63,694 nucleotides of DNA, from positions 1 to 63,694 of the forward strand of contig JBAZJW010000005.1 of assembly GCA_041651055.1 (NCBI GenBank), given 5' to 3'. The notes below the pieces were generated by a model, which made no database searches, was not told the origin of the DNA, and saw only the letters and a list, made by a program, of their open reading frames with translations. Both the position numbers and the translations under genes were made by a program. This stretch comes from Minisyncoccota bacterium (lineage in GTDB: Bacteria; Patescibacteriota; Minisyncoccia; Phycocordibacterales; UBA5272). Numbering within the stretch: the first letter of the stretch is position 1; each line of letters opens with the position of its first letter. Below are positions 9 through 53,127 of this stretch, piece after piece.

Positions 9-134
9 CCAGATGACGAACCTGCTCAGGCTTGCAAGGAAGAAGTACATGGAAACTGGTGAGGCGATAGTCACGTATGATGACGTTGTCATGGACGCCA
101 TTGAAGAACTGTGGAAGAAAGAAAACAAGTTCTT
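9..134. repeat. Left copy of 126-bp terminal direct repeat (= 63569..63694)
   Basis: Identical base for base by eye. It lies inside one continuous reading frame. nt 1-8 (accagttt) do not match 63561..63568 (tgcaggaa). Confidence 0.9.
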
Positions 135-360
135 CAACGACGACATCAGCACAGTGAGTGTGAACACCAGTGAGGAAAAGAACAGCAATCACGAGATGCT
201 GTTCCGAAGGCGCTGGAATAATCCCAAAGGGTTCAACAGCCCGTACTCGTACTTCGACGGGAAGCTAGTGCCGATAATGGTGGACGACAAAGGAAACATT
301 GTTTACCAGTACAAGCCATCACCTTACGAGCACAGGTGGCAGCAAGAGGGATTGCTATGA
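10..360 (+). CDS. C-terminal segment of the same radical SAM enzyme (10..134 duplicates 63570..63694); full protein about 457 aa
   Basis: The frame is open from the window start. MTNLLRLARKK at 13 is the internal Met seen at 63573. The stop is at 358..360. Confidence 0.75.
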   Translation, partial: QMTNLLRLARKKYMETGEAIVTYDDVVMDAIEELWKKENKFFNDDISTVSVNTSEEKNSNHEMLFRRRWNNPKGFNSPYSYFDGKLVPIMVDDKGNIVYQYKPSPYEHRWQQEGLL

Positions 361-887
361 ACAACATAATCATAGCAATCGGACAGTCAGGCAGTGGCAA
401 GACTACTTGGGTGAAGCAGAACTTTGTGGACGCTCACACCATTGAGAACTTAAAAGAAGGTTTAGTAAAGTATTGCAAGACCGACAGTGACTGCCTCTTG
501 TTAGGGCACTACAACGTGGGAATACGCACTGAGGGCACGGACACTCTAAGCTACAACGCAATTGACGAGGTGCTGGAGTTCATGTTCAATGAGGACAAGT
601 GCAATTACAGCACTGTTGTAGCCGAGGGCGACCGCATTAACAATGCCAAGTTCTTCCAGCGCATAGCACAGCAGTCAATGAATATTCACGTTGAATTGCA
701 TTATTTCAAGTGCGACCTTGCTGAATCAATGGAGCGCCTCAAGAAAGCAGGCTCGACCATAACAGAAACTTTCGTGAAGACGACAATGACCAAGAGTGCA
801 AACAATGCCAAGCTGGCACGTCAGTTAGGATTCAATGTGACCATTCACGACACTAACAGCAAACAACGTGGATTGTGGGGCATGTAA
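357..887 (+). CDS. P-loop kinase (candidate DNA/nucleotide kinase, 5-hmdU-DNA-kinase-like by context)
   Basis: ATGA overlap with the upstream stop. Walker A IAIGQSGSGKTTW is present. The C-terminus is QRGLWGM (PIP-like). Confidence 0.6.
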   Translation: MNNIIIAIGQSGSGKTTWVKQNFVDAHTIENLKEGLVKYCKTDSDCLLLGHYNVGIRTEGTDTLSYNAIDEVLEFMFNEDKCNYSTVVAEGDRINNAKFFQRIAQQSMNIHVELHYFKCDLAESMERLKKAGSTITETFVKTTMTKSANNAKLARQLGFNVTIHDTNSKQRGLWGM

Positions 888-888
888 A

Positions 889-1530
889 ATGTGCGGAATA
901 ATAGGTGCTCACATAAAAGAATTTAACGGCAACACCATAAAATTGTTGATTAACTTGTTTAATGAGAGCAAGATAAGAGGGTTGCACAGCTTTGGAATTG
1001 CGTACTACAATCACGAAGGACACATTTGTGTGGAAAAAAGTCACACACTGGACGCACTTACACTGGTTTCAAGACTTGCTGCGTTGAGCAACGGAAAGTT
1101 CATATTCCATTGTCGATACTCAACGAGTGGCGATTGGACTAATCACAACAACAATCAGCCCATATACCTTCTAGGCATAGGGGCAATTGCCGTTAATGGT
1201 GTCATATGCATGGACGACAAGGAGACAATGGAGAAAAAATACAATGTCGTCTTAGAGACTGCGAATGACGCTGAGATATTGTTGAAAAAACTTGAACAGA
1301 TGGAACTCATGTCGTTCATCAAAAATGAGTCATCAGCGAGCGTTGCAGCAACACTCCTGTCTGGGAATGATGTTTACGCTTTCAGGAATAACAAGCGTCC
1401 ACTATACATATACAACGACAACAAAGCCGAGAACAGAATTGCTGTTTCAACACTTGACATAATACTAAGAGCAGGCGGAAATAAAGATTGTGTCTCAATA
1501 TTAAAACCCTATAATATGTGCACACTATGA
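889..1530 (+). CDS. Stand-alone class II (Ntn) glutamine amidotransferase domain protein
   Basis: N-terminus is MCGIIG (Cys nucleophile after Met removal). Other motifs are RGLHSFG, HCRYSTSG...NQP, VNGVI and ANDAEILL. Confidence 0.75.
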   Translation: MCGIIGAHIKEFNGNTIKLLINLFNESKIRGLHSFGIAYYNHEGHICVEKSHTLDALTLVSRLAALSNGKFIFHCRYSTSGDWTNHNNNQPIYLLGIGAIAVNGVICMDDKETMEKKYNVVLETANDAEILLKKLEQMELMSFIKNESSASVAATLLSGNDVYAFRNNKRPLYIYNDNKAENRIAVSTLDIILRAGGNKDCVSILKPYNMCTL

Positions 1531-2582
1531 TACAAGCTTACAACAAAAAACGCTGGGAAAACTTTAAGCAATATTACAAGCTCATGCGCTACTCATGGGA
1601 TTGTGACCCAGCGTACCCTGCACTTAGGTACATCTGCGACAGGTATGAGTTGAACATGGAACAGCGTTACTGGATAGCATTCCTTTACGGTTGCACCTAT
1701 TGTGTGCCCACAACGTTTTACATTTACAACGAGTTTCCTGACTTTGAGAACGTCAGCATTGACAGGATGCAGAAGTGGTGGAAGGAAAACAAGAAGCGTG
1801 TCTTCTTCCAGTCAGACAGGGCGAAGATGAAAAACTTTGACAAGTTCATTCCTTGCGTGCAAAGTTATATGGAACTTATAAAACCTTGTGACAACAGCCA
1901 ACAACAACTCTTCTTTTCTCTCGAACAAGACTTGGAAAAATTATATGACATAACATACGAGAAAGCAGCAAAAATTTATTACTTCGGAAGATTCAGCCTG
2001 TTCAATTACTTAGAAGCACTCAACGAATTGACAGACCTGAAGATGAGACCTAGTATGATAAAACTTATTGATGCTGAGAGTTCACGCAACGGGCTTTGTT
2101 ACGCCTGCGGTGAGGACGACATGGTCACAATTCATCACGAGCAATCCGTTAAGCCGATTGACTACAAGTACTTAGCACTTGCAATGTGTGACTTGCTCAA
2201 AGAACTGCAGCAAGAAAACCCTGAGCTTAACGTGAACATATGGAACGTTGAGACAGTGCTGTGCGCTTACAAGAAGTTGTACTGGAGCACAAGGTACTTC
2301 GGTTATTACATTGACAGGATGCAGGAAGAGATAACACTTGCTGAGGAGTTCATTCCTAACGGGGTGGATTGGTCAGTGCTGTGGGACTTTAGACGTGAGT
2401 TCCTGCATCATTCCATGCTTGGAGAACTTAACAATTGGCGAGGAGTACGCCATGACAAGATGACAATATTTAAGAATACACAAAAATTTGTCAGTGTATT
2501 TGAGACAGTGCCAGATTTTGGTAACTTCAAAAAAAGTGTAACATTTGAAAAAATTGGTGACGTCTATGAACACGACCTTTAG
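1527..2582 (+). CDS. 351-aa helical protein; candidate aGPT-Pplase / amino-acid:DNA-transferase-like base-modifying enzyme (context only)
   Basis: ATGA overlap with the amidotransferase stop. It sits between kinase/GATase and GNAT. I can quote no diagnostic motif, so the call rests on gene neighbourhood. Confidence 0.35.
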   Translation: MIQAYNKKRWENFKQYYKLMRYSWDCDPAYPALRYICDRYELNMEQRYWIAFLYGCTYCVPTTFYIYNEFPDFENVSIDRMQKWWKENKKRVFFQSDRAKMKNFDKFIPCVQSYMELIKPCDNSQQQLFFSLEQDLEKLYDITYEKAAKIYYFGRFSLFNYLEALNELTDLKMRPSMIKLIDAESSRNGLCYACGEDDMVTIHHEQSVKPIDYKYLALAMCDLLKELQQENPELNVNIWNVETVLCAYKKLYWSTRYFGYYIDRMQEEITLAEEFIPNGVDWSVLWDFRREFLHHSMLGELNNWRGVRHDKMTIFKNTQKFVSVFETVPDFGNFKKSVTFEKIGDVYEHDL

Positions 2583-3105
2583 ACCTATACACGCAACAGA
2601 AAAAAGTGTAATAGAAACAATCTGCCAAGAAAGTGGAAACCCTGACATCAAGCAGTTTCCTAATTACTGGACACGATTCAAGAACTGGGAAAGCAATCCA
2701 CCATGCATCCTCATTGATGACGACACAAAGCGCATCATAGGATTCGCTGCATTCACAATGCAAAAGAAAGGCACTTATTGTAACTTCTACGCATTCTCAG
2801 TGCTTCCTGAATTTAGACGCATGGGGTACGGCGAACGAATTTGGAGATGCACATTATTGTTGGCGAAGAGCATGGGAAAGACCAGAATAAAGGCAGGAGC
2901 AAACATCAACTATTCAGGGTACGCATTCTTCACCAACAAGCTCGGATGGAAACCAATAGCAAAGAAGGGGAACGAGTACAGGTTTGACGCAAACATTACT
3001 GACGTGGAATGCATTGAAGATTTTAAGCGCATTGTCAAGAACCAAGACATTCCGCCTGATGATGAACTTAGTAAATATAAAAATATGGAGGAGTGCTTCC
3101 TATGA
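2566..3105 (+). CDS. GNAT family N-acetyltransferase
   Basis: GFAAFTMQ...FYAFSVLPEFRRMGYGERIW is a GNAT motif A-like R-x-x-G-x-G. ATG 2566 is in frame with the track ORF that starts at TTG 2545. Confidence 0.7.
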   Translation: MNTTFRPIHATEKSVIETICQESGNPDIKQFPNYWTRFKNWESNPPCILIDDDTKRIIGFAAFTMQKKGTYCNFYAFSVLPEFRRMGYGERIWRCTLLLAKSMGKTRIKAGANINYSGYAFFTNKLGWKPIAKKGNEYRFDANITDVECIEDFKRIVKNQDIPPDDELSKYKNMEECFL

Positions 3106-3290
3106 ACCAAGCACAATTCATGCAGAAGTACAGGAGCCTCACGCCTAATCAGAGAACCAGAACAGTGGTGACCATTGAACTTGAACACAACACCAACATA
3201 TTTGAAACGCCTTACAACTGGAATCAAATGTTCAATGAGGTCATACGAAAGACACAAATAGGCAAACAGCTTTTGGAGAAGCTACAATGA
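3102..3290 (+). CDS. Hypothetical protein (62 aa)
   Basis: ATGA overlap with the GNAT stop. The ORF is in the track (alternative start 3093). Confidence 0.5.
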   Translation: MNQAQFMQKYRSLTPNQRTRTVVTIELEHNTNIFETPYNWNQMFNEVIRKTQIGKQLLEKLQ

Positions 3291-3463
3291 CGAATTACAA
3301 AGAATATAGTGATGCAAAAGAAGCAATATCTCATTGTATCTCTAATAAGGAACAGGAGATAGCAAAAATAGAAATCGAAATTATAGAATTAAAACATACT
3401 AGACGAATGCTTGATGAAGAATTTAAAAAGAAACTTAATGAAAAACCAAATTTTATTGGATGA
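3287..3463 (+). CDS. Hypothetical coiled-coil protein (58 aa)
   Basis: Hand-translated MTNYKEYSDAKEAISHCISNKEQEIAKIEIEIIELK.... ATGA overlap with the upstream stop. It is below the track size cutoff. Confidence 0.45.
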   Translation: MTNYKEYSDAKEAISHCISNKEQEIAKIEIEIIELKHTRRMLDEEFKKKLNEKPNFIG

Positions 3464-3467
3464 TAAA

Positions 3468-5267
3468 ATGATTAACGAAGAAAACGCACTGATACTGGAC
3501 ATTGAAACCAAGACTATGTCCAGCAAGCCCAGTGGTGAACTGGACATTCACAGAGTCACTGGAATGTACAGTTATCCTCACAACAAGTTCATGCTCACAA
3601 TAGCCGTGCCTAACGTCCAGGCTGAGGTGGACGGGCACAAGGTCATAGTGGGGCACAACATTGAAGAGTACGACAGGCCAGTTCTTGAACGAGCAGGTAT
3701 TAGCTTTGATTACAAAATCATCGTTGACACGTTGCGCATAGCAAAGAACAGACTAAAACCTTTGATGCGTATAGACACCGAAAGTCATAGCCTTCAAGCA
3801 CTGGCTGAAATTCTCAATCTGAAAACTTTGAAGGGAGAAATTGATTACAAGATATTCCAGAAGCAGCCGAGTGAATGGACGGAGCAGGAAAAGGCAGAGA
3901 TTGTTAAGTACACCAAGGGTGACATTGAGGTTACCAAGGAATTGTTCGAGCTTTTTTACAACAAGTTCGTTGTATTCAGACAGTTCGTCAGTGAGAAGAA
4001 TCAGAAAAACTGGAGCTGGCTGACGTGCAGCAGTGGAAGTTTGAGCTACAAGATACTGTGCAACTTCGCAGGACTAGAAGAAAAGTATGCCAACAAAGAA
4101 AACCCTAGAGAAAAAGTTGGTGGGTTCGTCCTTGAACCAACAGGCGAAGAATACTTTGACGTTTGGTACTTAGACTTCGCTTCACTGTACCCTCAGATTT
4201 ACATGATGTTCAACCTGTTCGGCAACCCCACGCTTAGACCTGACTGCACTGACTGGTTCACTGGCAACAGCGTGTTTGAGATTAAAGGCAAATACGCCAA
4301 GGACAAGCCTCACATTCTAAGCTTGAAGTATGAGTACATGTTCAAGGAGCGCAAGAAGGTCAAGAAGTCCGACCCACCACTAGCGTATGCGTACAAGATT
4401 ATCCTGAATGGTGGCTACGGAGTTACACGTAGTCCAGTGTTTGAGAGCATTTTTTACGAGCACACAGGTGCTGATTGCTGCCGTATAGGGCAGAAGATGA
4501 ATCAGCTGATAGGACAATTCTTTGACGAAGCAGGATTTGACAGCGTTGCTGGAGACACAGACAGCAGGTTCTTGAAGTACAGGGGTTCAATGCCTATTCC
4601 CGAGCAGAAAAAGCTTCTTGAAGAAACGACCAAAAAGCTTATTGACTTTGTGAACGCAAACGTTCCTTTCCCTTCGTCAACGTTCGAGCTGGAAAACCAG
4701 ACGGGAAATGAGCCAGTGAAGTACATCAAGTTCGTCAAAGACAGAATCAAAAATAAGTTTTTGAAAAAGAATTACTTGTACGTTTACAAGGATGACAAGA
4801 CAGGAGCTAACAAGGTTGAGATTAAAGGAATGCCGATAATAAAGCATTCAGCAACAAAGGTTGGCAAGCGTGTGCTGGAAGAATACATCAAGCCCAAAAT
4901 TATTGCGAAAGGCATATGCGATTTTTCCAAGCAGGAAATCATGAAGAAAGCTGCAGAGATACTGAGTTTAGACATTAGTTTGGCTAGTGTCATGTTTAAG
5001 GTGAACGCTGCTAATACTTACAAGTCACAGACGTGCATTCAATACGCCATAAGCCAGAAGTTCTTTGGCGGAGAATCAGGAGTCATCCACCTGGTCAAGA
5101 ACAAGCGTGGCGGAGAAGTCAAGACTGGTGACGGCTATTATTGCTCAATGGATTATGCACGCACAAAACTTTGCTCCAGCGACATCATACTAGAGAAGCT
5201 GGAAAATGAGATTGAACCTTTCGTGACGCACAGAATTAATAATCAAAAAAGCTTATGGAATATCTAA
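3468..5267 (+). CDS. polB: Family B DNA polymerase with 3'-5' exonuclease domain
   Basis: ExoI LILDIET, ExoII HNIEEYD, ExoIII YTKGD. Pol motif A DFASLYPQ, motif B KIILNGGYG, motif C AGDTDS. The C-terminus is QKSLWNI. The start could also be 3411. Confidence 0.9.
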   Translation: MINEENALILDIETKTMSSKPSGELDIHRVTGMYSYPHNKFMLTIAVPNVQAEVDGHKVIVGHNIEEYDRPVLERAGISFDYKIIVDTLRIAKNRLKPLMRIDTESHSLQALAEILNLKTLKGEIDYKIFQKQPSEWTEQEKAEIVKYTKGDIEVTKELFELFYNKFVVFRQFVSEKNQKNWSWLTCSSGSLSYKILCNFAGLEEKYANKENPREKVGGFVLEPTGEEYFDVWYLDFASLYPQIYMMFNLFGNPTLRPDCTDWFTGNSVFEIKGKYAKDKPHILSLKYEYMFKERKKVKKSDPPLAYAYKIILNGGYGVTRSPVFESIFYEHTGADCCRIGQKMNQLIGQFFDEAGFDSVAGDTDSRFLKYRGSMPIPEQKKLLEETTKKLIDFVNANVPFPSSTFELENQTGNEPVKYIKFVKDRIKNKFLKKNYLYVYKDDKTGANKVEIKGMPIIKHSATKVGKRVLEEYIKPKIIAKGICDFSKQEIMKKAAEILSLDISLASVMFKVNAANTYKSQTCIQYAISQKFFGGESGVIHLVKNKRGGEVKTGDGYYCSMDYARTKLCSSDIILEKLENEIEPFVTHRINNQKSLWNI

Positions 5268-6689: not shown

Positions 6690-6753
6690 AAAGATATATA
6701 TACTAGCTTGACTATTATAATAGTAGAAACAACGCTTGGAGGCGCAAAAAATG
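6690..6753 (+). promoter_or_regulatory. Early promoter plus conserved leader, copy 1
   Basis: The order is AAAGATATATATA, then CTATTATAAT, then GCTTGGAGGCGCAAAAAATG. It is near-identical to the copies at 9087 and 12601. Confidence 0.7.
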
Positions 6754-7593
6754 ACAAACGAAACAATAAGCACAACAGTTGAAGGCAAAGAAGTTATCTA
6801 CGACGTCAGGAACAAGTCCTGGACTTACGACGGCGTTGCAGAAGCCATAGTCGTCAAGCTAACACCTAGCTTGGCCTCAACAGTGAACAAGGCTCTCGAG
6901 AAGAACGTAGCCGAATATCAGGCCAGGATACTGGAAGAAGCAGCCACTAAGAAAGCAGCAGAGCTTGCCAAGATGCAGGAGCAGCTAGACACGTTCAAGC
7001 GCAGGGTAACACAGGCTTTTACTTATGTTGGATACACGCTCAAATTCGCCGACCTGACCAATGTCTGGGCTAGGGTGAACGAAGTCAGCGTCAGTAAGGA
7101 TAACATAAGTGCAGAAGTCAGGTACGACAGCAGCGTTTACCACAGTGGAAGCTTCGGCTCTTCACTGACTAATAAGCCGTGGATAGTCAGTTTTTCCTAC
7201 AAGAACATAAGATATACTACTCTGGAGAAGGCATTGGAAGCAGCCAAGACAAGGATTGACGAGAAGATAGCAGAGAACACTGCCAAGGTAGAAGCTAAGA
7301 AGAAAGAAGAAGACAGGGACGTTGAGACACAGGAGAAGCTTGACCAGTACGGAATAAAGCTAGTCACTGAAGTTGAGTACGGCAGGAACAGAAGCTACAA
7401 TTGCAAGCGAGCCGTCATAACAGTAGCCGAGGACAACGACCAGAAGTACGGCGTAGCCCTTAAAGGCAGCTTCGGAATGACAGACCTTGAAGTCGAACAC
7501 GTCAAGATAAGGGGAAGATTCAGCGCAGAGCAGTTTCAGAAGCTCGCGGAGTTCGTCAAAACACTCGACGTGACTCCAGTGTACGATTACTAA
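6751..7593 (+). CDS. Hypothetical protein (280 aa)
   Basis: ATG lies behind the conserved GGAGG leader. The track ORF starts at an upstream TTG. Confidence 0.7.
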   Translation: MTNETISTTVEGKEVIYDVRNKSWTYDGVAEAIVVKLTPSLASTVNKALEKNVAEYQARILEEAATKKAAELAKMQEQLDTFKRRVTQAFTYVGYTLKFADLTNVWARVNEVSVSKDNISAEVRYDSSVYHSGSFGSSLTNKPWIVSFSYKNIRYTTLEKALEAAKTRIDEKIAENTAKVEAKKKEEDRDVETQEKLDQYGIKLVTEVEYGRNRSYNCKRAVITVAEDNDQKYGVALKGSFGMTDLEVEHVKIRGRFSAEQFQKLAEFVKTLDVTPVYDY

Positions 7594-10521: not shown

Positions 10522-10673
10522 CCAAGATGACACTCCCATGGGCTAACAAGTTCAGGGAACTTGTAAAAAATTCGTCTAGTTCACCAGAAATAATTATGAA
10601 GTTCACCAAATATTGTGACGAACAAGAAAGAAAACTAATGGAGGCGTGGAAGAATGGCAAAAATAAAGTTTAG
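10518..10673 (+). CDS. Hypothetical protein (51 aa)
   Basis: ATGA overlap with the upstream stop. It is in frame with track ORF 10488..10673. Confidence 0.4.
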   Translation: MTKMTLPWANKFRELVKNSSSSPEIIMKFTKYCDEQERKLMEAWKNGKNKV

Positions 10674-11538
10674 GGAAGACTTGCGCTTGAGCAAGCACAA
10701 CAAAGAGCAGCTTCTTGTAATCAACAAGATTATCGAGGAGTATGCAGCAGAAGGCTACAAGCTGACACTCAGGCAGCTTTATTACCAGCTTGTAAGTCGT
10801 GACATCATAGCAAACCAAGTGCGTGAGTACGCAAAACTTAGCAACCTGTTAGTAAAGGGCAGGATGGCAGGCGTTGTAGATTGGGACGCAATTGAAGACC
10901 GTGTTCGAAGACCTTTCCTGCCGTACTGGTGTGAAGACGTGCCTGACGCAATCAATGACATTACGAACTCGTACAGGCTTGACCGACAGAAAGACCAAGA
11001 CACATACATTGAAGTTTGGGTTGAGAAGGACGCCTTGTCTGGTGTGCTTAGACGCATAACAAGTGAGTTCCACGTCAACCTAATGGTCAACAGGGGATAC
11101 AGTTCGTGCACAGCAATGTATGACGCTGCCAAAAGGATGAAGAACGCAATGTGTAATGACAAAGAATGTCACATACTGTACTTAGGCGACCACGACCCGT
11201 CAGGGCTTGACATGGTCAGGGACATCAGGGACAGACTCGCTGAGTTCGGCGTTGACGTCACTGTCAAAGCAATAGGACTAACGACAGAGCAGGTCAAGAA
11301 GTACAACCCACCGCCTAATCCAGCGAAGATAACAGACCCACGTGCTGGAGCATATATAAGAGAACACGGCAGAGTTTCGTGGGAAGTGGACGCCCTGAAT
11401 CCGAAAACGCTTCACGCTCTTGTCAGGTCAAACGTAACAGCACTGATTGACATGGACAAGTTCAACAAAATCGTTGAGCAAGAAGAAGAAGACAAGAAGA
11501 AACTGACAAGGATAGCCGTAGAATATGAGGAGGATTGA
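10654..11538 (+). CDS. Topoisomerase VI subunit A / Spo11-like protein without a B subunit ('Mini-A'-like)
   Basis: LTLRQLYYQLV gives a candidate catalytic Tyr in a winged helix. Toprim Glu in VWVEKDAL and the acidic cluster in YLGDHDPSGLDM. Confidence 0.5.
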   Translation: MAKIKFREDLRLSKHNKEQLLVINKIIEEYAAEGYKLTLRQLYYQLVSRDIIANQVREYAKLSNLLVKGRMAGVVDWDAIEDRVRRPFLPYWCEDVPDAINDITNSYRLDRQKDQDTYIEVWVEKDALSGVLRRITSEFHVNLMVNRGYSSCTAMYDAAKRMKNAMCNDKECHILYLGDHDPSGLDMVRDIRDRLAEFGVDVTVKAIGLTTEQVKKYNPPPNPAKITDPRAGAYIREHGRVSWEVDALNPKTLHALVRSNVTALIDMDKFNKIVEQEEEDKKKLTRIAVEYEED

Positions 11539-14434: not shown

Positions 14435-14649
14435 ATCAGGTAAAACTCAGGGCTATATCCAGCAGGCACGGCAACGAATCTTTCGGTGTAACTATCCCTA
14501 TTGAGATTGCCAGCAAATACGAAGGCACTTACTTTCACGTCACAGAACGTGACGGGTGTATTCTTTTAGTTTCAGGATGTCATGCAGAGGTGAAGAGGGA
14601 TGCAAGAGAAAATAAAATTGGGGTGGATGTCAGATTCGCCAATGTTTAA
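14431..14649 (+). CDS. AbrB/SpoVT-type (swapped-hairpin) DNA-binding protein
   Basis: The GVTIPIEIASKY pattern. ATGA overlap with the upstream stop. Confidence 0.5.
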   Translation: MNQVKLRAISSRHGNESFGVTIPIEIASKYEGTYFHVTERDGCILLVSGCHAEVKRDARENKIGVDVRFANV

Positions 14650-15811
14650 CACGGGCTTCTCGAGTATTAGCCGTGACCTAATCAACAGGCTTAACAAGAA
14701 GCCTCAGTATGATTGCAAGTATCTAGGGCATAATTACCAAGGTCAGGCACTGACACGGGGTACAAAGTTCATTGACGGAAGTGAACTTGACTTCGAGCTT
14801 CACGGCGGTGGAATGAAACCCTTTGCTCAGGACGTCATGAGTTGGTGGATTAAACAGCAGAAGCTTGACGTGTTCGGCGTCCTGTTAGATACGTTCATGC
14901 TTTACGGCAGTGACGGGTGGTTTCTTAGACAGGATACTAGCCCTGCAAAGACTATAATGTATTTTCCAAGTGACGGTGAAGCCTGTCTTCCAATCAACTG
15001 CGAGAACATTCTTAGGAAGGTTGACATGCCAGTGGCCATGAGCAAGTTCGCCAAGAAGCAGGCATGGGACGTTTACAAAATAAAGACGGAGTACATTCCT
15101 CATGCTGTTGACCAAAAGCTTTTCTTTCCATTCACAACGGAAGAAAGAATTGCGCTTAAAGCAAAGTGGGGCTTGAAGAACAAGTTTGTTGTTGGCACTG
15201 TGGCCAGGAATCAGCCACGGAAAATGCTGGACAGAACTTTCAAGGCATTCAAGATATTCGCTGAAGGAAAGGATGACGTGGTTTTGTTCTTGCATTCCGA
15301 CCCGAATGATATTTCTGCAGTATTTGATTCTTATCAGTTGATGATGCGGTACAACATTCAGAATAAGGTGTTGTTTTCAGGAGTAAAATATTTTAGAGGT
15401 CTTCCATACAAGGAAATGAACAGCGTATACAACATCATGGACGTTCACTTCTTGTCAACATCTGGTGAGGGCTTCGGAGTTCCAACCATTGAAGCTGCTG
15501 CTTGTGGAATCCCGTCAGTAGTGACAGACATTACCACCACGCAAGAACTCTTGGTTGAAGACGGGGAATGCGGACTTCCAGTGAAGTGCCTTGGCGGAGA
15601 ACTTGATACGCTAACTGGAAGCTGGAATGTTGAGCGAGGAGTAATGGACATTCTGGACGCAGCTAAACAATTGCAAAAACTTTATGATGACGCCAAGCTT
15701 AGAGCCAAGCTCGGCGAGAACGGAGTGAAGAAAGTCGAGAAGTTCTATGACTGGGAAAAAGTTGCGGATGACTGGGACAGGCTAATCAGGGAGAAGGTGA
15801 TGGAACTGTGA
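14600..15811 (+). CDS. GT-B glycosyltransferase, family 4-like
   Basis: STSGEGFGVPTIEAAACGIPSVV is an E-x7-E type motif. SD GAGGTGAAGAGGG precedes the ATG. Confidence 0.75.
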   Translation: MQEKIKLGWMSDSPMFNTGFSSISRDLINRLNKKPQYDCKYLGHNYQGQALTRGTKFIDGSELDFELHGGGMKPFAQDVMSWWIKQQKLDVFGVLLDTFMLYGSDGWFLRQDTSPAKTIMYFPSDGEACLPINCENILRKVDMPVAMSKFAKKQAWDVYKIKTEYIPHAVDQKLFFPFTTEERIALKAKWGLKNKFVVGTVARNQPRKMLDRTFKAFKIFAEGKDDVVLFLHSDPNDISAVFDSYQLMMRYNIQNKVLFSGVKYFRGLPYKEMNSVYNIMDVHFLSTSGEGFGVPTIEAAACGIPSVVTDITTTQELLVEDGECGLPVKCLGGELDTLTGSWNVERGVMDILDAAKQLQKLYDDAKLRAKLGENGVKKVEKFYDWEKVADDWDRLIREKVMEL

Positions 15812-16527
15812 TTATTGCAGCAATGATTTTTCAGAACTCCGAAGACTACATTGAAATGGCTTTGAAGTCAGTCATGACGTGGGCTGACAAGATAGTTCTG
15901 GTGAATGGTGGCTGCACTGACAAGACTCTGGACATTATAACACACCTTAGAGATGAAAGGTTTGTAATGATTTTTAATCCTTGGGATTCTAAGGACAAAG
16001 GCATGGACGGCAAGCAGCGGAATGTGTACTTGAAATATCTTCTGGAAAATCATATTGGTGACTGGTGCTTAGTCATTGACAGTGACGAAGTGGCGAGTGA
16101 TAGCTGCGTGTACCTTAAAAAGAATCTTGAAGAAGTGGAAGCGCAAGGAATCAATGTCATCAGTCCTAAAATGGAGCATTTCATGTACGACTTGAAGCAC
16201 GTTGACGCTTCAATGGACAAGCACTGGTGTCTTCACAGGCTGTTCAAAGTACAGCCAGGGCTTCACTATCCAGAAGTTGAGCACAACGTTTTAGAAGTGC
16301 CCAACATTAAGCATGCGCATACCGAAGGTATAACACTGTATCACTTAGGATATATTAGAGGATTGTTTAGTGTCATGAACAGGTACAACAAGAATCTAAG
16401 CAAGAGCAACATTCATACGCCAGAATTTTTAGACAGGTGGAAGAATCATCACATTCTAGGAACGTACCCTACAAGATTTTATAATGGTGAGTACCCTAGA
16501 GCAATGAAAGAATACTTTGGCATTTGA
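15808..16527 (+). CDS. GT-A glycosyltransferase, family 2-like
   Basis: IIAAMIFQNSEDYIEMALKSV...LVIDSDEV has a DxD-type motif. Confidence 0.6.
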   Translation: MIIAAMIFQNSEDYIEMALKSVMTWADKIVLVNGGCTDKTLDIITHLRDERFVMIFNPWDSKDKGMDGKQRNVYLKYLLENHIGDWCLVIDSDEVASDSCVYLKKNLEEVEAQGINVISPKMEHFMYDLKHVDASMDKHWCLHRLFKVQPGLHYPEVEHNVLEVPNIKHAHTEGITLYHLGYIRGLFSVMNRYNKNLSKSNIHTPEFLDRWKNHHILGTYPTRFYNGEYPRAMKEYFGI

Positions 16528-17081
16528 CGATGGACTACAAACAATCAGACTACAATGATGCGTACTGGGAAGGCAGGGACAAGATAGAGCCTAAACATTA
16601 CGTCATCTGTTCGGACATTTACAAGTCATTCATTCCGAAGACACTTCTTGACTTCGGCTGCGGAGCAGGACAATTGGTAAAAATTTTTAATGATATGGAA
16701 GTTAATGCGTTCGGTTATGAGCCTTCAAAAATTGCGAACACATACAAACGCTCTGGAAAAATTGATTCGCAGTACGCATTCTTAGATTATGATTTGATAA
16801 CTTGCATGGACGTGGCTGAGCATATTCCAGTTGTAGATGTTGATGAGTTCTTGTCAGAAATAAAAAAGGCTTCTGTCAGGGAAGAATTTGTTGTAGTGTT
16901 CAGCATTTGTTTCAGGGGCGACCCAAACTTCAAGCACGACAGCACTCATATCACCGAACGCACTCGAGAGTGGTGGGAATACAAGCTCAGAAGCAATGGC
17001 TACGATATACTAAAGACTCCAACTTTCTGGGCGTTTAATAATCAAATGATGGTCACAAGAATAAAGAAAGAGGTGGGATAA
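16524..17081 (+). CDS. Class I SAM-dependent methyltransferase
   Basis: Motif I LLDFGCGAGQL. Confidence 0.7.
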   Translation: MTMDYKQSDYNDAYWEGRDKIEPKHYVICSDIYKSFIPKTLLDFGCGAGQLVKIFNDMEVNAFGYEPSKIANTYKRSGKIDSQYAFLDYDLITCMDVAEHIPVVDVDEFLSEIKKASVREEFVVVFSICFRGDPNFKHDSTHITERTREWWEYKLRSNGYDILKTPTFWAFNNQMMVTRIKKEVG

Positions 17082-17082
17082 G

Positions 17083-17943
17083 TTGACGCAAAGGATTAGT
17101 ATACATATTGCAACGAAGGACAGGCATTCAGAGATTGCCTGCTTGTTAGTGAGTCTTCGCAGTCAAACATTTCAGGACTGGGACTTAGTGATTGTTGACG
17201 AGAGTCAGACACCATTGAACACTCACGTGCCCACAATGCACTTGCTTAATAGGCTGCGCTTGGAAGGTCACAAGGTCAACTTGATGCGCAATACAATGCT
17301 GTTAGGCGTGTGCCATGCTAGGAATATCTGCATTGACAACGATACTTTCAAGAATAAGCTAACACTAAGAGTAGATGACGACGTCATTCTTGACACTGAC
17401 TACATAGAAAAACTTTACAATGTTCTTGCGTCAGATTATGACATTGCTTCTGGAGTGACTCCATTAGTATCGCAGCCAGAGTTCATTAGAGAACCCAAGC
17501 GTCTGAACGGAATTGTCAATAAGATTGAGTACGACAAGGAAGGAAACATTGTCAGGCTTGATGATGACTGCGGAATGTGCTACGACGGATATGTTAATCA
17601 ACCTGACGCAGATGGAGATTGTCTGCTACCTTTTGATATGGTTGTTTTGCCAGCAGACCACTTCCGTAGTTGCGCATTATACAAGACTGAAATCACTGAC
17701 AAGGGCATAAGATATGAGTCTAACTTGAGCCCAGTGGGTTTCAGGGAAGAAAGTTTTTTCAGCCTCAGAGCAAGATACTTGGGTTGCAATATTGGCGTTG
17801 ACCTGTCAGCAAAGGCTTGGCATTTCATGACTCCTTCTGGCGGTTGTCGTTATCCCAATTATCAAGAACTTGTGATGCAGGACAACGAGCTGTTTATGAA
17901 ATGGTCAAAGGCTATGTTCAAAGAAAAAGGTGAGCCGAAATGA
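17083..17943 (+). CDS. GT-A glycosyltransferase, family 2-like
   Basis: ISIHIATKDRHSEIACLLVSLRSQTFQDWDLVIVDES...RVDDD. It uses a TTG start. Confidence 0.65.
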   Translation: MTQRISIHIATKDRHSEIACLLVSLRSQTFQDWDLVIVDESQTPLNTHVPTMHLLNRLRLEGHKVNLMRNTMLLGVCHARNICIDNDTFKNKLTLRVDDDVILDTDYIEKLYNVLASDYDIASGVTPLVSQPEFIREPKRLNGIVNKIEYDKEGNIVRLDDDCGMCYDGYVNQPDADGDCLLPFDMVVLPADHFRSCALYKTEITDKGIRYESNLSPVGFREESFFSLRARYLGCNIGVDLSAKAWHFMTPSGGCRYPNYQELVMQDNELFMKWSKAMFKEKGEPK

Positions 17944-18356
17944 TTAGAGTCACAGTGAGTGGCGGTTTCGACCCATTGCATATTGGACACTTGAGGATGA
18001 TGCAAGAAGCCAAGACGCTCGGAGACTACTTGATTGTCATCGTAAACAATGACAACTGGCTGAATAAGAAAAAAGGTTACACGTTCATGCCAGAAAATGA
18101 ACGGGTTGAACTCATTGAAGGACTTGCCTGCGTTGACGAAGTAGTACTGTCCAAGCATAAGCCCAACCCTGACGACATGAGCGTATGTAATGAACTCCGT
18201 GACATCCAGCCAGACATTTTTGCGAATGGTGGTGACAGGTTTTCTGACAATACTCCAGAGAAGAATCTTTGTGACGAACTAGGTATTGATACAGTGTTCA
18301 ATGTTGGTGGCGGAAAAATAAGGAGCAGTAGCGAACTTGTCAACAAATGTAGGTGA
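17940..18356 (+). CDS. Cytidylyl/adenylyl-transferase of the HxGH family (TagD / RfaE domain II-like sugar or glycerol-phosphate activation)
   Basis: SGGFDPLHIGHLRMMQEAKTLGDYLIVIVNND...ERVELIEGLACVDEVV. Confidence 0.75.
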   Translation: MIRVTVSGGFDPLHIGHLRMMQEAKTLGDYLIVIVNNDNWLNKKKGYTFMPENERVELIEGLACVDEVVLSKHKPNPDDMSVCNELRDIQPDIFANGGDRFSDNTPEKNLCDELGIDTVFNVGGGKIRSSSELVNKCR

Positions 18357-18362
18357 TGAACA

Positions 18363-19457
18363 ATGAAGCTTAATGTTATGGGAAACGTTTTCAGTCAGAC
18401 AGGATTCTCGGTTCATACAAGATTCTTAGCCGAAGCACTGCAGGACTCGGGCTATGACGTTGCCATTGAAAGCCCGAAGCACCCGAACTGGGAAATGCTT
18501 TGCCCTGATAAAATGTTTAAGATGTTGAACAAGAACTATCAGCGTGAGCCAACAATAATGATTACATCACCAGATTATTATAGGCTCAAGTGGGCTGACA
18601 ATCCTGAGAAGCTTATTGGATTCTGCATTTGGGAAGGAGACACTGTGCCTAAGTCTTGGACTAGAAACTTGGAATTGTGCGACCAGATTTGGGTTCCGAG
18701 CGAGCATGTAAAAAATGCTATTATGCATTCACTAAGTTCTGAAGAAGTTGAGGAGCTCGCGATTGTGGAAAAAATGTTTGTTGTTCCTCATGGCGTAGAC
18801 CTCAAACAATTCTACCCGAAGAAAGTGGAACGGGATGACCGATTTACTTTCGTAGCTGTTAAGGGTTGGGCTGAAGGGCTTAACGACAGGGGTGGACTCC
18901 AGTACCTAATTAGAGCCTTTGTGGACGAGTTTCAAGAGGGTGAGGCTGTTAAGCTTATGGTCAAAGTGAACGCTGTATACGGCGGTTCAGAAGAGCTTGT
19001 AGGCTCTTGGCTTAAACAAGCTGGTATAGAGAAGCTTCCGAGTAACGTAGAGCTAGTATTTAAAGACATTCCGTACTCTGAGCTAATAGATACCTATAAC
19101 AAAGGGGACGTCTTTGTATGCTCCACTAGGGGTGAAGCTTTTAATCTCGTAGGATTAGAGGCTATGGCTTGTGGGCTTCCAACGCTGCAAACAGGCTTTG
19201 GCGGTCAACTGGATTATATGACTCCAGGCAATTCTTGGTACATTGATTGTAAGCTCGAAGAGGTCACTCATAACAAGCTTCTTGAGGGAATCAAGTGGGC
19301 TACACCTGACCATGAAGACCTAAGAGTCAAGCTTAGATACTGCTTCGAACATCAAGATGAAGTAAAACAAAAGGGAATTCAAGCTTTGAAAGATGTTCAA
19401 GAATGGTCATGGAATAATTCTGCAGTGAAAGCAAAGCAGGCTCTTGATAAATTATGA
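18363..19457 (+). CDS. GT-B glycosyltransferase, family 4-like
   Basis: STRGEAFNLVGLEAMACGLPTL. Confidence 0.7.
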   Translation: MKLNVMGNVFSQTGFSVHTRFLAEALQDSGYDVAIESPKHPNWEMLCPDKMFKMLNKNYQREPTIMITSPDYYRLKWADNPEKLIGFCIWEGDTVPKSWTRNLELCDQIWVPSEHVKNAIMHSLSSEEVEELAIVEKMFVVPHGVDLKQFYPKKVERDDRFTFVAVKGWAEGLNDRGGLQYLIRAFVDEFQEGEAVKLMVKVNAVYGGSEELVGSWLKQAGIEKLPSNVELVFKDIPYSELIDTYNKGDVFVCSTRGEAFNLVGLEAMACGLPTLQTGFGGQLDYMTPGNSWYIDCKLEEVTHNKLLEGIKWATPDHEDLRVKLRYCFEHQDEVKQKGIQALKDVQEWSWNNSAVKAKQALDKL

Positions 19458-20386: not shown

Positions 20387-21913
20387 TCATTTATAACCTA
20401 GCCATGCACTCCATATTTTTGGTGTGGGATTGTCAGTATCACTCTGCAAGTTAAATCTTATTTTTATAGCTATTCCTTCCACTGTCGGAACTGTTAACGT
20501 ATTTAATCCAATACCTTGCCATGTGCTACCATTGTCAACGCTGAACTCAAACGTGCAAGAGTTATAATCTTGCCCATGTATCCTAAGTTCCACACCAGTT
20601 ATTACTGCATCACTATATTTTGTTATACTTGTTGCACTGCCAGATGATTGTCCAGTATCTAACATGAGTGTACTATTCAATTCTTGTGTATTAGTGTGCG
20701 TAAATTGTGACGAACTTTCTTCGAAGGTGTAACATATTGCATCTGTGATGGCATTAGGATTGTTGGAGGCTTGTATGTTGCCTGTTATCTTATCATCTCT
20801 TAATGAAATAATATCCCATAATTCAGTGCCATTACGTTCATAAGAAAGTGTAGTTACCCAATTGGCAGCACTAATATTGTGAGTGAACTCTTGCACTATA
20901 TGAAGTCCTGAAATGTCACACCTCGGGCATTCACAGTAAATGCTTTGTCCTGGACGAAGTGTTGGAAGTCCATGAAGTACTGTAAGTGTTCCTTTGGTAT
21001 CTGTTACGTTGGAACTTCCAAGCTTTAGACTAACATCAGTCTCAATTGCTTCCTGTGAATGAAGATTGTTATCATTGACTAATAGGTCTTTCTGCCAAAA
21101 ACTAGCTATATCTGTGCTATCTTTTTTACTTTTAGCATAATAAAAATTTCCAGCACTTTCAACCTTGTCGCCAGTCATTATGATATTATTACGACGTTCT
21201 AGAAGGTCTTCACCATAATTATTCACTGCCGCAAGGTTCTGTCCTATGACTACACTCTCAGCAGTATTTATTTCTTGAGTGAACGTATGTATATCGTAAT
21301 CAAAATCTAAGTAGCCATAGTACCCTGCTTTGTTCAATGCATCACTGAATATTTTTGCAGGTTTTGCCCAAGTGTAATCTCTATAAATTAATGTGGTCAT
21401 TCCAGTGCTCATGTTAGTAGTTGTAAGAATACTAGAGAACCAGTTAGTGACCATAGAAGATAATAACACATATACTGTCTGGCTCGTAACACTCTCAACA
21501 ATTAGCCTGTCTTGAACTTCTGGAGCTTCCCTGCCTTCAAGTACCATAAAATATCCGTTGTTAGCATCAAAGCTTTTGAAAGGTGCATCGATTTTTCCTC
21601 TGAATATTTGATTAGTTGCATCTGTAAAATCTGCATAAATGTCAATTCTTTCTCCGCCCGTAATGATAGAGTTCCACTTACCTTCTGTGTTATCAATGTC
21701 AACAGTGAAAGTTCCAAAGCCTCGATTAAGAGTTTTTCTTGTTACAGAAATATTAAGCACATGAGGACTTGTAGAGCTTGCGAGGTCGACTTGAGTTCCG
21801 CTATGAAGCGTAACTAATACTTTTAATTTGGGCGTATAAGTAGAACGTGGAGTAATTACAATAACTTCATCATCATGAAAACTTCCAGAATTAGGTCGTG
21901 ATAGTGTTGCCAT
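20387..21913 (-). CDS. Tail/baseplate structural protein (508 aa)
   Basis: Called from its position at the distal end of the tail module. No motif was quoted. Confidence 0.4.
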   Translation of the reverse strand: MATLSRPNSGSFHDDEVIVITPRSTYTPKLKVLVTLHSGTQVDLASSTSPHVLNISVTRKTLNRGFGTFTVDIDNTEGKWNSIITGGERIDIYADFTDATNQIFRGKIDAPFKSFDANNGYFMVLEGREAPEVQDRLIVESVTSQTVYVLLSSMVTNWFSSILTTTNMSTGMTTLIYRDYTWAKPAKIFSDALNKAGYYGYLDFDYDIHTFTQEINTAESVVIGQNLAAVNNYGEDLLERRNNIIMTGDKVESAGNFYYAKSKKDSTDIASFWQKDLLVNDNNLHSQEAIETDVSLKLGSSNVTDTKGTLTVLHGLPTLRPGQSIYCECPRCDISGLHIVQEFTHNISAANWVTTLSYERNGTELWDIISLRDDKITGNIQASNNPNAITDAICYTFEESSSQFTHTNTQELNSTLMLDTGQSSGSATSITKYSDAVITGVELRIHGQDYNSCTFEFSVDNGSTWQGIGLNTLTVPTVEGIAIKIRFNLQSDTDNPTPKIWSAWLGYK

Positions 21914-48397: not shown

Positions 48398-48480
48398 TAG
48401 CAGGGGGAAGATTCGAACTTCCGCACTCTTTCGAGTCCAGGTCATGAGCCTAGCGGGATTGACCACTACCCGACCCTGCT
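48398..48480 (-). tRNA. tRNA, anticodon CAU (Met/Ile2-type), with A1:U72 pair and an atypical 14-nt extra arm
   Basis: Hand-folded. Acceptor AGCAGGG/CCCTGCT. D stem GGG/CCC with loop ...AGTGGT.... Anticodon stem CTAGG/CCTGG with loop CTCATGA (anticodon at 48444..48446). Extra arm ACTC-GAAA-GAGT. T arm GGAAG-TTCGAAT-CTTCC. Discriminator A, no encoded CCA. Confidence 0.75.
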
Positions 48481-49492: not shown

Positions 49493-49823
49493 TCTTCTCA
49501 TCCTCCACATCTACTTCTTCACAGTTCTTGTCCAGGTCAGTCTTGACAGAAATCTTAACTTTGTAGTCTTCAAAACTGTCCATATCCTCAATGAGCACGT
49601 CTTCGTTGCCATTAAAGAAATGTTCTTCAAAGTCTCCAGTATCAAAAAATCCTTCTATATGTTGAACAAGTGCTTTATGCATATCTATTGCATACCCAGC
49701 CCTAAATACTCTAAGCTCAAACTTCTTTTCTGAAGTTTCAAAGTTTTCATCACTTTGTCCTTCTTCTGGGAAGACTTCATAATTGTCTTCACTCTCAACT
49801 ACAATCGTTATTATACTTTTCAT
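49485..49823 (-). CDS. Highly acidic protein (112 aa; 33 D/E vs 11 K/R by hand count)
   Basis: ATG 49823 lies behind GGAGGG. Confidence 0.6.
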   Translation of the reverse strand: MKSIITIVVESEDNYEVFPEEGQSDENFETSEKKFELRVFRAGYAIDMHKALVQHIEGFFDTGDFEEHFFNGNEDVLIEDMDSFEDYKVKISVKTDLDKNCEEVDVEDEKNE

Positions 49824-52547: not shown

Positions 52548-52595
52548 CACATCGTTAATTATTAATCACCTCAAATATAAAAGAACAGAAATATA

Positions 52596-52620
52596 ACAAA
52601 TATATAAACTTTAGGATGTT
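52596..52620 (-). promoter_or_regulatory. Promoter of the minus arm (origin-proximal)
   Basis: The minus strand reads CCTAAAGTTTATATATTTG. This is the same AAAGTTTATAT core as the late promoters but without the CTATATAGCACAACTT upstream element. Confidence 0.55.
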
Positions 52621-52831
52621 TCAGCATGCGCCTGTTATACGGCTTCATCAAACTAATCAAGGTCTAATCAAGCTGCAAATCCTGATAAAAAAAGTTAGTA
52701 AAAAATAAGGTACCAATTTTTTACTCTGTTTTTATAAAAATTTTTATATTTTGATATATAATAAATCTATATTCTAAGAAATATATTTTCTAAAAATATC
52801 GTCTGAGTATACAGGTTCGCTTCGATTTTAC

Positions 52832-52864
52832 TAAAGGTTTTATGCTAAAAAGAGGGTAAGGAAC
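52832..52864. repeat. Origin inverted repeat, left arm
   Basis: TAAAGGTTTTATGCTAAAAAGAGGGTAAGGAAC. Confidence 0.8.
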
Positions 52865-52971
52865 AAAAGTAGTGTCCGTACTTCTATATAATTTTTTTAA
52901 AAGAATATAAAACAATATATATTTTTATATATGTATAAATTTTTTTATACAATACATGGTGTCAGTTCTCG

Positions 52972-53003
52972 CTCCTTACCCGTTTTTTGACCTAAAACCT
53001 TTA
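52972..53003. repeat. Origin inverted repeat, right arm
   Basis: The reverse complement reads TAAAGGTTTTAGGTCAAAAAACGGGTAAGGAG. It shares TAAAGGTTTTA, AAAAA and GGGTAAGGA blocks with the left arm. Confidence 0.8.
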
Positions 53004-53127
53004 ATTTTTTGTCCTCTTTAAATACTATCCCTAACGTAAAAACCAAAATTATAACAATTTCTTTTTACTTAAAACGCTTTTATATTCTACGAAATATATT
53101 TTACAAAACACTATTTCGGAGAATATA

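Follow-up and report, generated by a model that had tools for sequence, protein, structure and literature searches.

The stretch of DNA analysed here, called the window below, is the whole 63,694-nt contig JBAZJW010000005.1 (assembly GCA_041651055.1, filed under a Minisyncoccota bacterium). It represents the whole genome of a tailed virus, about 63.6 kb long once closed: it carries a terminal direct repeat, and its virion genes (HK97-type capsid, portal-MuF fusion, large terminase subunit TerL and tail tube) are those of a tailed virus. Across the closure point lie five plus-strand genes, for a radical S-adenosylmethionine (SAM) enzyme, a P-loop kinase, a stand-alone glutamine amidotransferase (GATase), a 351-aa protein that we assign as an amino-acid:DNA transferase (AADT) and a GNAT N-acetyltransferase. 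We read them as a thymidine hypermodification operon of the 5-hydroxymethyldeoxyuridine (5-hmdU)-kinase/AADT type, in which the radical SAM enzyme would stand in place of the ThyA-like or TET/JBP source of 5-hmdU; we give this reading a probability of about 0.6. The cassette is real and of a known kind, and its downstream half is common; it is the entry enzyme that appears to be new. The features of the locus are the following.

9..134 and 63569..63694, no strand: terminal direct repeat, 126 bp, exact 126-nt match
62230..62577, + strand: 115-aa protein, conserved; overlaps the start of the radical SAM gene by 31 nt
62547..63694, + strand: radical SAM enzyme, N-terminal 382 codons; CSFGCLYC, i.e. 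CX3CX2C at C50/C54/C57
135..360, + strand: radical SAM enzyme, C-terminal 75 codons plus stop; continues from 63694 after closure
357..887, + strand: P-loop kinase, predicted 5-hmdU DNA kinase; Walker A GQSGSGKT
889..1530, + strand: stand-alone class II (Ntn) GATase; MCGIIG start, HCRYSTSG
1527..2582, + strand: AADT (aGPT-Pplase2, PUGT-like) by its match to Pfam PF18724, 351 aa
2566..3105, + strand: GNAT N-acetyltransferase; Pfam Acetyltransf_1
3093..3290 and 3287..3463: two small open reading frames (ORFs) between the GNAT gene and polB
3411..5267: polB, downstream of the GNAT gene and the two small ORFs

Joining position 63694 to position 135 yields a single radical SAM ORF of 457 aa, which aligns end to end with the homolog P0122 (64% identity, 100% query coverage). 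Since the family-invariant residues W410, N411, Y422, D433, Y442, Y447, E448 and W451 are encoded by the 135..360 part, so that invariant positions are present on either side of the junction, the circular closure is correct. A first-pass annotation had described five packed plus-strand genes with ATGA-type overlaps, placed directly upstream of polB. The five genes, their motifs and the closure are confirmed on the sequence. ATGA overlaps are present between the radical SAM and kinase genes (357-360) and between the GATase and AADT genes (1527-1530), but the kinase and GATase genes are separated by a 1-nt gap and the AADT and GNAT genes overlap by 17 nt; the cassette is indeed upstream of polB, though not directly, two small ORFs intervening. 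The same order, radical SAM-kinase-GATase-AADT-GNAT-PolB, is found on two independent contigs, L001 of 65 kb and L003 of 55 kb.

The kinase, GATase, AADT and GNAT genes

The 351-aa protein had been held to be unassignable; on its profile and its fold it is an AADT. It matches Pfam PF18724 over profile positions 5-227 of 232 (E 9.9e-22; 78.2 bits versus a cut-off of 26.2) and, among PHROGs, phrog_3271 (E 1e-46). Foldseek with its AlphaFold2 model (pLDDT 94.2) returned 8Z2N/8Z2M at probability 1.0 (TM-score 0.53 by query and 0.65 by target), all other PDB matches having E>2. These two entries are crystal structures of PaMx11 gp46, a 5-phosphomethyldeoxyuridine (5-PmdU) glycinyltransferase (PMC11472151), and the model thus shows the all-helical fold with an HhH element by which the family is distinguished. 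The comparison with aGPT-Pplase profiles that the first-pass annotation had proposed thus gives AADT/aGPT-Pplase2, by Pfam (E 1e-21) as well as by fold, and transfer of an amine onto 5-PmdU is the predicted reaction. Residues D27 and E242-T243-x2-C246 are invariant in 30/30 close homologs; in a wider set of 106 this still holds for C246, and nearly so for D27, E242 and T243. These residues match D25/E222/T223/C226 of Pplase2 from phage 15599, defined by mutagenesis as the metal-ligand and catalytic-cysteine set (PMC13458397), a correspondence drawn from motif spacing and an N-terminal GD(C/L)DP alignment to M6 gp51.

The AADT has 546 homologs in a large protein collection, two of which (P0014 and P0018) are AADT-GNAT fusion proteins. 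The nearest AADTs from cultured phages are of the ViI type (about 30% identity over 88% of the protein, E 1e-20), namely the serine:DNA transferase gp247 of Salmonella phage ViI and its Ackermannviridae homologs; hhalign of the AADT profile with M6 gp51 gave a weak match (probability 15%, N-terminal half only). A single-sequence search of viral contigs found no AADT relatives, and an alignment-based query was needed; likewise, searching the PDB by sequence with the AADT, its profile or the radical SAM profile gave noise only, and a fold search was needed.

The kinase gene is one gene away from the AADT gene, and the same kinase family adjoins the AADT in 53 loci. Its best PHROG is phrog_800 (E 2.6e-9), in which the proven 5-hmdU DNA kinase (5-HMUDK) of phage M6, gp54, falls at E 2e-39, and it matches a local hidden Markov model (HMM) of AADT-adjacent kinases at E 1e-31. 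The Pfam families Thymidylate_kin and dNK gave no match at E<=1, and the best Pfam family is Ploopntkinase3. The profile check suggested for this gene therefore leans towards homology to 5-HMUDK and speaks against a dNMP or thymidylate kinase, and we predict a 5-hmdU DNA kinase. Direct phmmer searches of the window with M6 gp51, gp53, gp54 and gp58 gave no matches. Two PHROG labels are misleading here: phrog_800 is called 'terminase small subunit', which is wrong given that it holds M6 gp54, and phrog_6059, the best match of the Tet_JBP proteins that we found, is called 'queuine tRNA-ribosyltransferase'. Automatic annotation would therefore be misled.

The GATase (213 aa) consists of the glutaminase domain only, with no fused synthase; its NCBIfam matches, PurF (E 1e-9) and GlmS (E 1e-8), are confined to the N-terminal domains of these families. 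C2 (the residue after the initiator Met), R30, G31, R76, T79, N103, G104 and D127 are invariant in 81/81 homologs. They nearly coincide with PurF C1/R26/G27/N101/G102/D127, which we take to be the complete glutamine-binding and hydrolysis set. The best match in a cultured phage, from Pseudomonas phage BroderSalsa, was set aside as its context is unrelated (amidoligase/RimK), and we looked for, and did not find, a cultured phage with a GATase-AADT pair. As for the GNAT, it is well above the cut-off of Pfam Acetyltransf_1 (PF00583; 37.7 bits versus 20.7), and the GNAT domains fused to AADT in P0014 and P0018 are homologous to it.

An alignment-based scan gave 87 AADT loci; their ORFs were clustered, HMMs were built and the clusters were named by Pfam. 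Among the 89 loci holding an AADT, 78 have the GATase, adjoining or overlapping the AADT gene, 64 a ParB_N protein, 63 a Tet_JBP dioxygenase, 53 the kinase, 23 a second kinase type and 30 a GNAT. The usual module is thus ParB-TET/JBP-GATase-(GNAT)-AADT-kinase. This constancy of the GATase with the AADT clade, together with the gene order recurring in L001 and L003, makes the arrangement of the window more than a chance one. From the overlap of the genes and their co-occurrence, we predict that the GATase is an ammonia donor to the AADT.

The combination of kinase, GATase, AADT and GNAT, which the first-pass annotation took to be new, is therefore common next to ParB and TET/JBP. The ParB-TET-GATase-kinase-AADT core corresponds to the 'ParB-dependent T-dioxygenase' neighbourhood of O'Toole et al. 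2026 (PMC13229309), and amidotransferases had been observed in clusters of this kind, with no function proposed, by Lee et al. 2021 (PMC8989533); the kinase, GATase and AADT core is thus already in print, the GNAT part is not, and the set is uncharacterised. Compared with the cassettes of ParB-dependent thymine dioxygenases (5mYOX, clade C1 of TET/JBP; PMC13229309), which have the same kinase, the same GATase, the same AADT clade and often a GNAT (63 loci here), the window lacks TET/JBP and ParB and has an SPL-like radical SAM enzyme instead; its gut-associated relatives keep ParB beside the radical SAM gene. The broader proposal of a post-replicative hypermodification cassette is backed by the AADT assignment, the PHROG of the kinase and the recurring synteny, the chemistry itself being predicted.

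The radical SAM enzyme and the entry step

The enzyme is like spore photoproduct lyase (SPL) in fold and lies outside the SPL, PA0069 and Rv2578c families, its NCBIfam matches to the latter two being weak (44.5 bits versus 360 and 38.5 versus 430, respectively). With its AlphaFold2 model (pLDDT 93), Foldseek listed only radical SAM enzymes among the leading matches, in agreement with the partial TIM-barrel fold of this superfamily, and the six best PDB matches are all SPL, the closest solved fold being 4FHC and related entries (E 5e-7, TM-score 0.44/0.58). Like SPL, whose substrate is thymine in DNA, it has the CX3CX2C motif with a tyrosine before the third cysteine, a feature kept in its family; C50, C54 and C57 are kept in 91-94 of 94 homologs. 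It differs from SPL by its low identity (14-15%), about 120 extra C-terminal residues, the family-specific conserved cysteines C38, C306, C329 and C330 and its DNA-modification context. M6 gp53 has a different Cys-rich tail of its own, so the extra cysteines, considered as a sign of an auxiliary Fe-S cluster, do not discriminate between the possible roles of the enzyme. hhalign relates the two proteins at a probability of 94% with 17% identity; phrog_13321 is matched by both and is the only PHROG matched by the window enzyme, whereas gp53 matches its own phrog_9252 at E=0. The family comprises 366 homologs and, at 50% identity and E<=1e-30, 248 clusters. Inteins (PF14890) split some of its members, namely P0124, P0129, P0365 and those of L138, L143, L145 and L148 (ORFs of 700-1090 aa).

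In characterised pathways, either a ThyA-like dUMP hydroxymethylase or TET/JBP supplies the 5-hmdU (PMC8989533). Neither was detected in the window: Pfam scans of all ORFs of at least 190 aa, and of most shorter ones, gave no Thymidylat_synt, Thy1, Tet_JBP, dUTPase or dCMP deaminase, and neither M6 gp58 nor local TET and ParB HMMs (at E<=10) matched any six-frame ORF. Within these searches, the earlier statement that the genome has no ThyA-like hydroxymethylase holds, and it extends to ThyX and TET/JBP.

Among the 87 AADT-anchored loci, 10 have only the radical SAM gene, 63 only TET, none both and 14 neither (Fisher p=5e-7). The exclusion persists when the AADTs are clustered at 90, 70 and 60% identity (p=3e-6, 9e-4 and 0.04, respectively), no cluster having both. 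Thirteen of the 14 loci with neither have a recognisable AADT: 8 of these end within about 2 kb of the cassette, 2 have a ThyA homolog and 3 have none. Seen from the other side, TET occurs in 0/73 loci holding the radical SAM family, while its usual partners do occur there: the TET-associated glycosyltransferase (TAGT, PF20691) in 26/73, usually as the next gene, and the kinase together with the AADT in 21/73. A ParB of the TET-associated type adjoins the radical SAM gene in 24/29 contigs binned with gut or rumen bacteria, in layouts such as ParB-AADT-kinase-GNAT-rSAM, ParB-TAGT-rSAM and ParB-ParB-kinase-rSAM (rSAM, radical SAM). In its position the radical SAM enzyme corresponds to TET, with which it shares three independent partners (kinase/AADT, TAGT and TET-type ParB). 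Fusions into single proteins were also found, with TAGT (in both orders), with ParB_N, with an FkbM methyltransferase and, in P0404, with a Ploopntkinase3-like kinase plus TAGT.

One locus serves as a natural control. L134 (9649-15565) encodes a radical SAM enzyme of the window type (E 2e-145) directly followed by a separate ortholog of M6 gp53 (E 3e-83), a gp52-like pyridoxal phosphate (PLP) enzyme, an AADT and a kinase, and no ThyA or TET was found alongside this full M6 tailoring set. It is predicted to make an M6-like 5-aminoethyldeoxyuridine (5-NedU) base without a hydroxymethylase.

Habitat labels follow the same division. The contigs with the radical SAM gene carry labels of gut, rumen or sediment anaerobes in at least 24/29 cases (e.g. 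Prevotella/Segatella, Bacteroidaceae, Lachnospiraceae, Clostridia, Methanobrevibacter, Spirochaetaceae), and complete Segatella copri chromosomes are among them; the contigs with TET carry those of taxa from oxic habitats in 12/13 cases (e.g. Methylococcus, Methylomonas, Saprospiraceae, Sediminibacterium, Flavobacteriaceae, Oscillatoria). In S. copri HDE04 the locus is a prophage (L179 3944-9054; NZ_CP152346.1, ~1.934-1.948 Mb) arranged as ParB-ParB-kinase-rSAM-(201 aa)-TerL, and two other S. copri genomes have the same arrangement (L182 and L184).

Other Fe-S or B12 genes accompany the radical SAM enzyme. SPASM radical SAM, DUF2284 and B12 radical SAM genes are present in 18, 12 and 5 of the 73 radical SAM loci, respectively, and in 0/63 TET loci. 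The window has a gene of the SPASM type:

49795..50787, - strand: second radical SAM enzyme, with a SPASM domain (Pfam SPASM, NCBIfam SPASM-type matches)

It matches the SPASM cluster (rSAM_SPASM, E 5.5e-9) that adjoins TAGT in those 18 loci; an accessory role is possible, in sugar tailoring, electron transfer or an oxidation step. DUF2284, a predicted metal-binding protein, is found in L008, L095, L101-L103, L121, L124, L125, L127, L129, L132 and L151, and in many radical SAM loci its gene lies beside or overlaps the kinase gene; L004, L009 and L085, all devoid of the SPL-like radical SAM enzyme, have it too. The SPASM enzyme and DUF2284 might both contribute to the entry step. Finally, a small ORF lies directly upstream of the radical SAM gene in 42/73 radical SAM loci and in 0/63 TET loci. 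In the window it is the 115-aa ORF, which matches the local HMM of these small ORFs (E 1.5e-16) and gave no match in Pfam and PHROG searches; its product may be an accessory or partner of the radical SAM enzyme, or may merely reflect shared synteny of the replication module. The ORF beside it (61611..62084) weakly resembles a clamp-loader small subunit.

The proposed pathway and its alternatives

SPL generates a radical at the C5-methyl of thymine in DNA, and there are precedents for a radical SAM enzyme taking over from an O2-dependent one in anaerobes (AcsF/BchE and HemF/HemN), the oxygen coming from water in the case of BchE. Comparative genomics suggests that the radical SAM enzyme of the window would take a hydrogen atom off the C5-methyl group of a thymine in DNA and convert this group, without O2, into the hydroxymethyl of 5-hmdU, the oxygen presumably coming from water. 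By homology, the kinase would then phosphorylate 5-hmdU to 5-PmdU, and the AADT, with a divalent metal held by D27/E242/T243, would attack C6 through Cys246 and eliminate the phosphate, leaving an exocyclic methylene. Ammonia from the glutaminase would capture this methylene to give 5-aminomethyldeoxyuridine (5-NmdU), whose primary amine the GNAT would acetylate to 5-acetylaminomethyldeoxyuridine (5-AcNmdU). DNA so modified would resist host nucleases.

That the radical SAM enzyme provides the entry step had been raised as a possibility in the first-pass annotation. It is backed, in a comparative way, by the exclusion of TET, the shared partners, the fusions, L134 and the habitats, and for the SPL-like family as a whole the role of an O2-independent hydroxylase of 5-methylpyrimidine (thymine) in DNA, an anaerobic counterpart of TET/JBP, seems to us to have slightly better than even odds. 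No proposal of a radical SAM enzyme in place of TET/JBP was found in the literature searched, outside of which lay Iyer et al. 2013, reportedly the first description of the aGPT-Pplase and TAGT contexts.

A number of points weigh against the operon as we read it. Every step of the pathway is inferred, we know of no radical SAM enzyme that hydroxylates DNA, and the nearest characterised relative of this one, M6 gp53, is a distant homolog and an isomerase. Two of the assignments fall just short of Pfam cut-offs, by 0.9 bit for the radical SAM enzyme (Radical_SAM, 28.6 versus 29.5 bits) and by 1 bit for the kinase (Ploopntkinase3, 26.0 versus 27); for the GNAT, tblastn against 50,697 phage records at E<=0.1 found no relatives, PaMx11 gp48 included. 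The absence of TET and ThyA from the window is bounded by the sensitivity of the HMMs, and ORFs with no match remain (e.g. 6736..7593 and 57405..58211). The counts behind the radical SAM/TET exclusivity are not phylogenetically independent, and the labels of the metagenome-assembled genomes (MAGs) into which viral contigs are binned reflect the sample more than the host and are unreliable as host calls. Lastly, some loci do not obey the rule: L004, L010, L085 and L086 have no TET, radical SAM or ThyA gene within 10 kb, what is present there being DUF2284 or SPASM radical SAM genes, and two radical SAM loci, L115 and L139, also hold a ThyA-like gene, which adjoins a dCMP deaminase gene and may be an ordinary thymidylate synthase.

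The closest characterised counterpart of the proposed pathway is that of PaMx11, which makes 5-AcNmdU with the AADT gp46, the FAD lyase gp47, the acetyltransferase gp48 and the 5-HMUDK gp49 (Lee et al. 2021, PMC8989533). Kinase, AADT and GNAT are common to both systems, as are the AADT fold and, by prediction, the end product. The window, however, has no FAD lyase, its amine is proposed to come from the ammonia of glutamine instead of from glycine followed by oxidative cleavage, its GNAT is not detectably related to those of cultured phages, and its 5-hmdU would not come from a dUMP hydroxymethylase. The GNAT may nevertheless work like gp48, though the tblastn search described above did not detect it as a member of the gp48 family.

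The nature of the transferred amine can be disputed. It may be that the entry step is as we propose but that the AADT transfers an amino acid or another amine, so that the final base differs from 5-AcNmdU; the GATase would then, for example, process a glutamine-derived adduct or supply nitrogen elsewhere. Glycine, serine or diamines are the substrates of every AADT characterised so far (PMC8989533; PMC13458397), and the closest cultured relatives are the serine transferases of the ViI type. ViI has a PLP decarboxylase acting after the serine transfer, a dUMP hydroxymethylase and no GATase partner. The window has neither an FAD lyase nor a PLP enzyme to unmask an amine, and the GNAT of PaMx11 accepts only the primary amine of 5-NmdU (PMC8989533). 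Moreover, the GATase-linked AADTs form a uniform clade with A247 and an aliphatic residue at 258, the positions at which the enzyme of YuA, which uses glycine, has K248 and Y257 to bind the carboxylate (PMC13458397). Because of these features, together with the AADT-GNAT fusions, the near-constant overlap of the GATase and AADT genes and the intact glutaminase residues, whose invariance bears on the binding of free glutamine, we favour the ammonia route and regard transfer of an amino acid or another amine as doubtful. The sequence of ammonia delivery, aminomethyl base and acetylation put forward in the first-pass annotation is likewise consistent with the invariant glutaminase set and the fusions, as a deduction about chemistry.

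The place of the radical SAM enzyme in the order of reactions can also be disputed. In the M6 pathway to 5-NedU (gp51 AADT, gp52 PLP enzyme, gp53 radical SAM isomerase, gp54 5-HMUDK and gp58 dUMP hydroxymethylase), the gene for an SPL-like radical SAM enzyme likewise lies in a cluster that encodes an AADT and a kinase, the latter of the same PHROG as here (PMC8989533). By analogy, the window enzyme could be a tailoring enzyme acting after the AADT, the 5-hmdU being made by an unrecognised viral or host enzyme, and the detectable kinship of the two proteins fits this. We nevertheless find it unlikely. The window enzyme falls outside the PHROG of gp53, and the window lacks both the PLP decarboxylase and the ThyA homolog of the M6 set. 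Many loci of the family have only a TAGT or only a kinase, without an AADT, so that the radical SAM enzyme would have no amino-acid adduct to isomerise there, and the fusions with TAGT point the same way. L134 holds both types of radical SAM enzyme side by side; since the window type is encoded there beside a separate gp53 ortholog, it is presumably not the isomerase. A tailoring role would also leave a complete genome without a source of 5-hmdU and the exclusion of TET unexplained. Two more distant readings concern the target and the very existence of the modification. Action on cytosine (from 5mC to 5hmC and onward) is very improbable: glycosyltransferases of the TAGT type are known on 5hmC and the relative L001 has a C5 DNA methyltransferase gene right after PolB (13753-14904), but Pfam scans found no such methyltransferase in the window, all characterised kinase/AADT chemistry is on 5-hmdU (PMC8989533) and SPL acts on thymine. 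Least credible of all is a fortuitous neighbourhood of ordinary nucleotide-metabolism and repair genes (dNMP kinase, amidotransferase, SPL-type repair enzyme, unrelated GNAT). The kinase and radical SAM scores just under the Pfam cut-offs and the JGI label 'DNA repair photolyase' given to homologs could suggest it; the strength of the AADT assignment, the synteny and fusions kept across several hundred loci, the absence of thymidylate-kinase or dNK matches and the senselessness of spore-photoproduct repair for gut phages argue against it.

Viral DNA with hypermodified thymidines is protected against restriction enzymes and other nucleases, and the enzymes involved are sources of DNA-labelling chemistry. 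To our knowledge, the known routes to 5-hydroxymethyluracil (5hmU) are all of two types, one relying on a ThyA homolog that needs folate and acts before replication, the other on a TET/JBP dioxygenase that needs O2 and acts afterwards. If the radical SAM enzyme is a thymine hydroxylase, there is an oxygen-independent way of writing 5hmU, which would explain how viruses of anoxic habitats (guts, rumen, sediments) build hypermodified bases. It would also be a new type of reaction for radical SAM chemistry on DNA, and the first such enzyme to install a hydroxymethyl there; in viruses of anaerobes, S. copri prophages included, the family would lie at the head of hypermodification pathways of the kinase/AADT, glycosyltransferase and ParB-linked kinds. 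The GATase, long seen in such clusters, gains a testable role as ammonia donor to the AADT, in what would be a two-enzyme shortcut to 5-aminomethyl-dU. The hypothesis is directly testable, as related cassettes lie in prophages of cultured S. copri strains.

The host and other features of the genome

The first-pass annotation had called this an archaeal virus; we find an archaeal host plausible, the evidence being divided. On the archaeal side, the major capsid protein and TerL have the haloarchaeal virus HGTV-1 as best cultured match (Thermus phages being nearly equal for TerL), and a contig binned as Heimdallarchaeaceae has a syntenic structural module whose major capsid protein is 59% identical to that of the window. 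Against it, or neutral, are the following: the clamp loader resembles gp44 of the T4 type, the clamp and the genes around it also occur in phages encoding bacterial-type PolIII-alpha, DnaB and RecA, and the closest relative of the AADT is binned as a WOR-3 bacterium. PolB gave no phage match. The MAG labels of the relatives conflict (Heimdallarchaeaceae, Hodarchaeales and Thermoplasmatales versus WOR-3 and others), and a scan for sigma-70 promoters and terminators was uninformative as to the host domain. An 83-nt tRNA-Met(CAT) gene (48398..48480, - strand) is unusual for a tRNA-Met, with A1:U72 as first pair and an 11-nt extra arm, and differs from the canonical initiators of both domains.

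In related phages, replicative polymerases fused to uracil-DNA glycosylase (UDG), either PolIII-alpha-UDG or PolA-UDG, are encoded downstream of the radical SAM cassettes, at a distance of a few genes:

L093 14426-17782: UDG-fused polymerase
L094 15995-19369: UDG-fused polymerase
L153 14692-18051: UDG-fused polymerase
L154 13130-15805: UDG-fused polymerase

A few other regions of the window deserve mention. A plus-strand cluster at 14600..19457 encodes, in order, a GT4 glycosyltransferase, a GT2, a SAM methyltransferase, a second GT2, a cytidylyltransferase and a second GT4; none is a TAGT, and this is probably a glycan pathway for the virion or the host surface. The 2060-aa protein encoded at 21913..28095 (- strand) has an N-terminal signal-like segment and a Laminin_G_3 domain and is extremely rich in N-x-S/T sequons; it is probably a tail fibre or an adhesin. 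Between the divergent minus- and plus-strand modules lies an AT-rich non-coding gap of 780 bp (52551..53334), in which TTTATATA-like motifs recur and a 31-nt inverted repeat is present (52832-52862 / 52973-53003); this gap is a candidate origin or promoter region. The 294-aa protein encoded at 10654..11538 (+ strand), which belongs to no Pfam family, matches phrog_6247, 'DNA topoisomerase', at E 9e-94.

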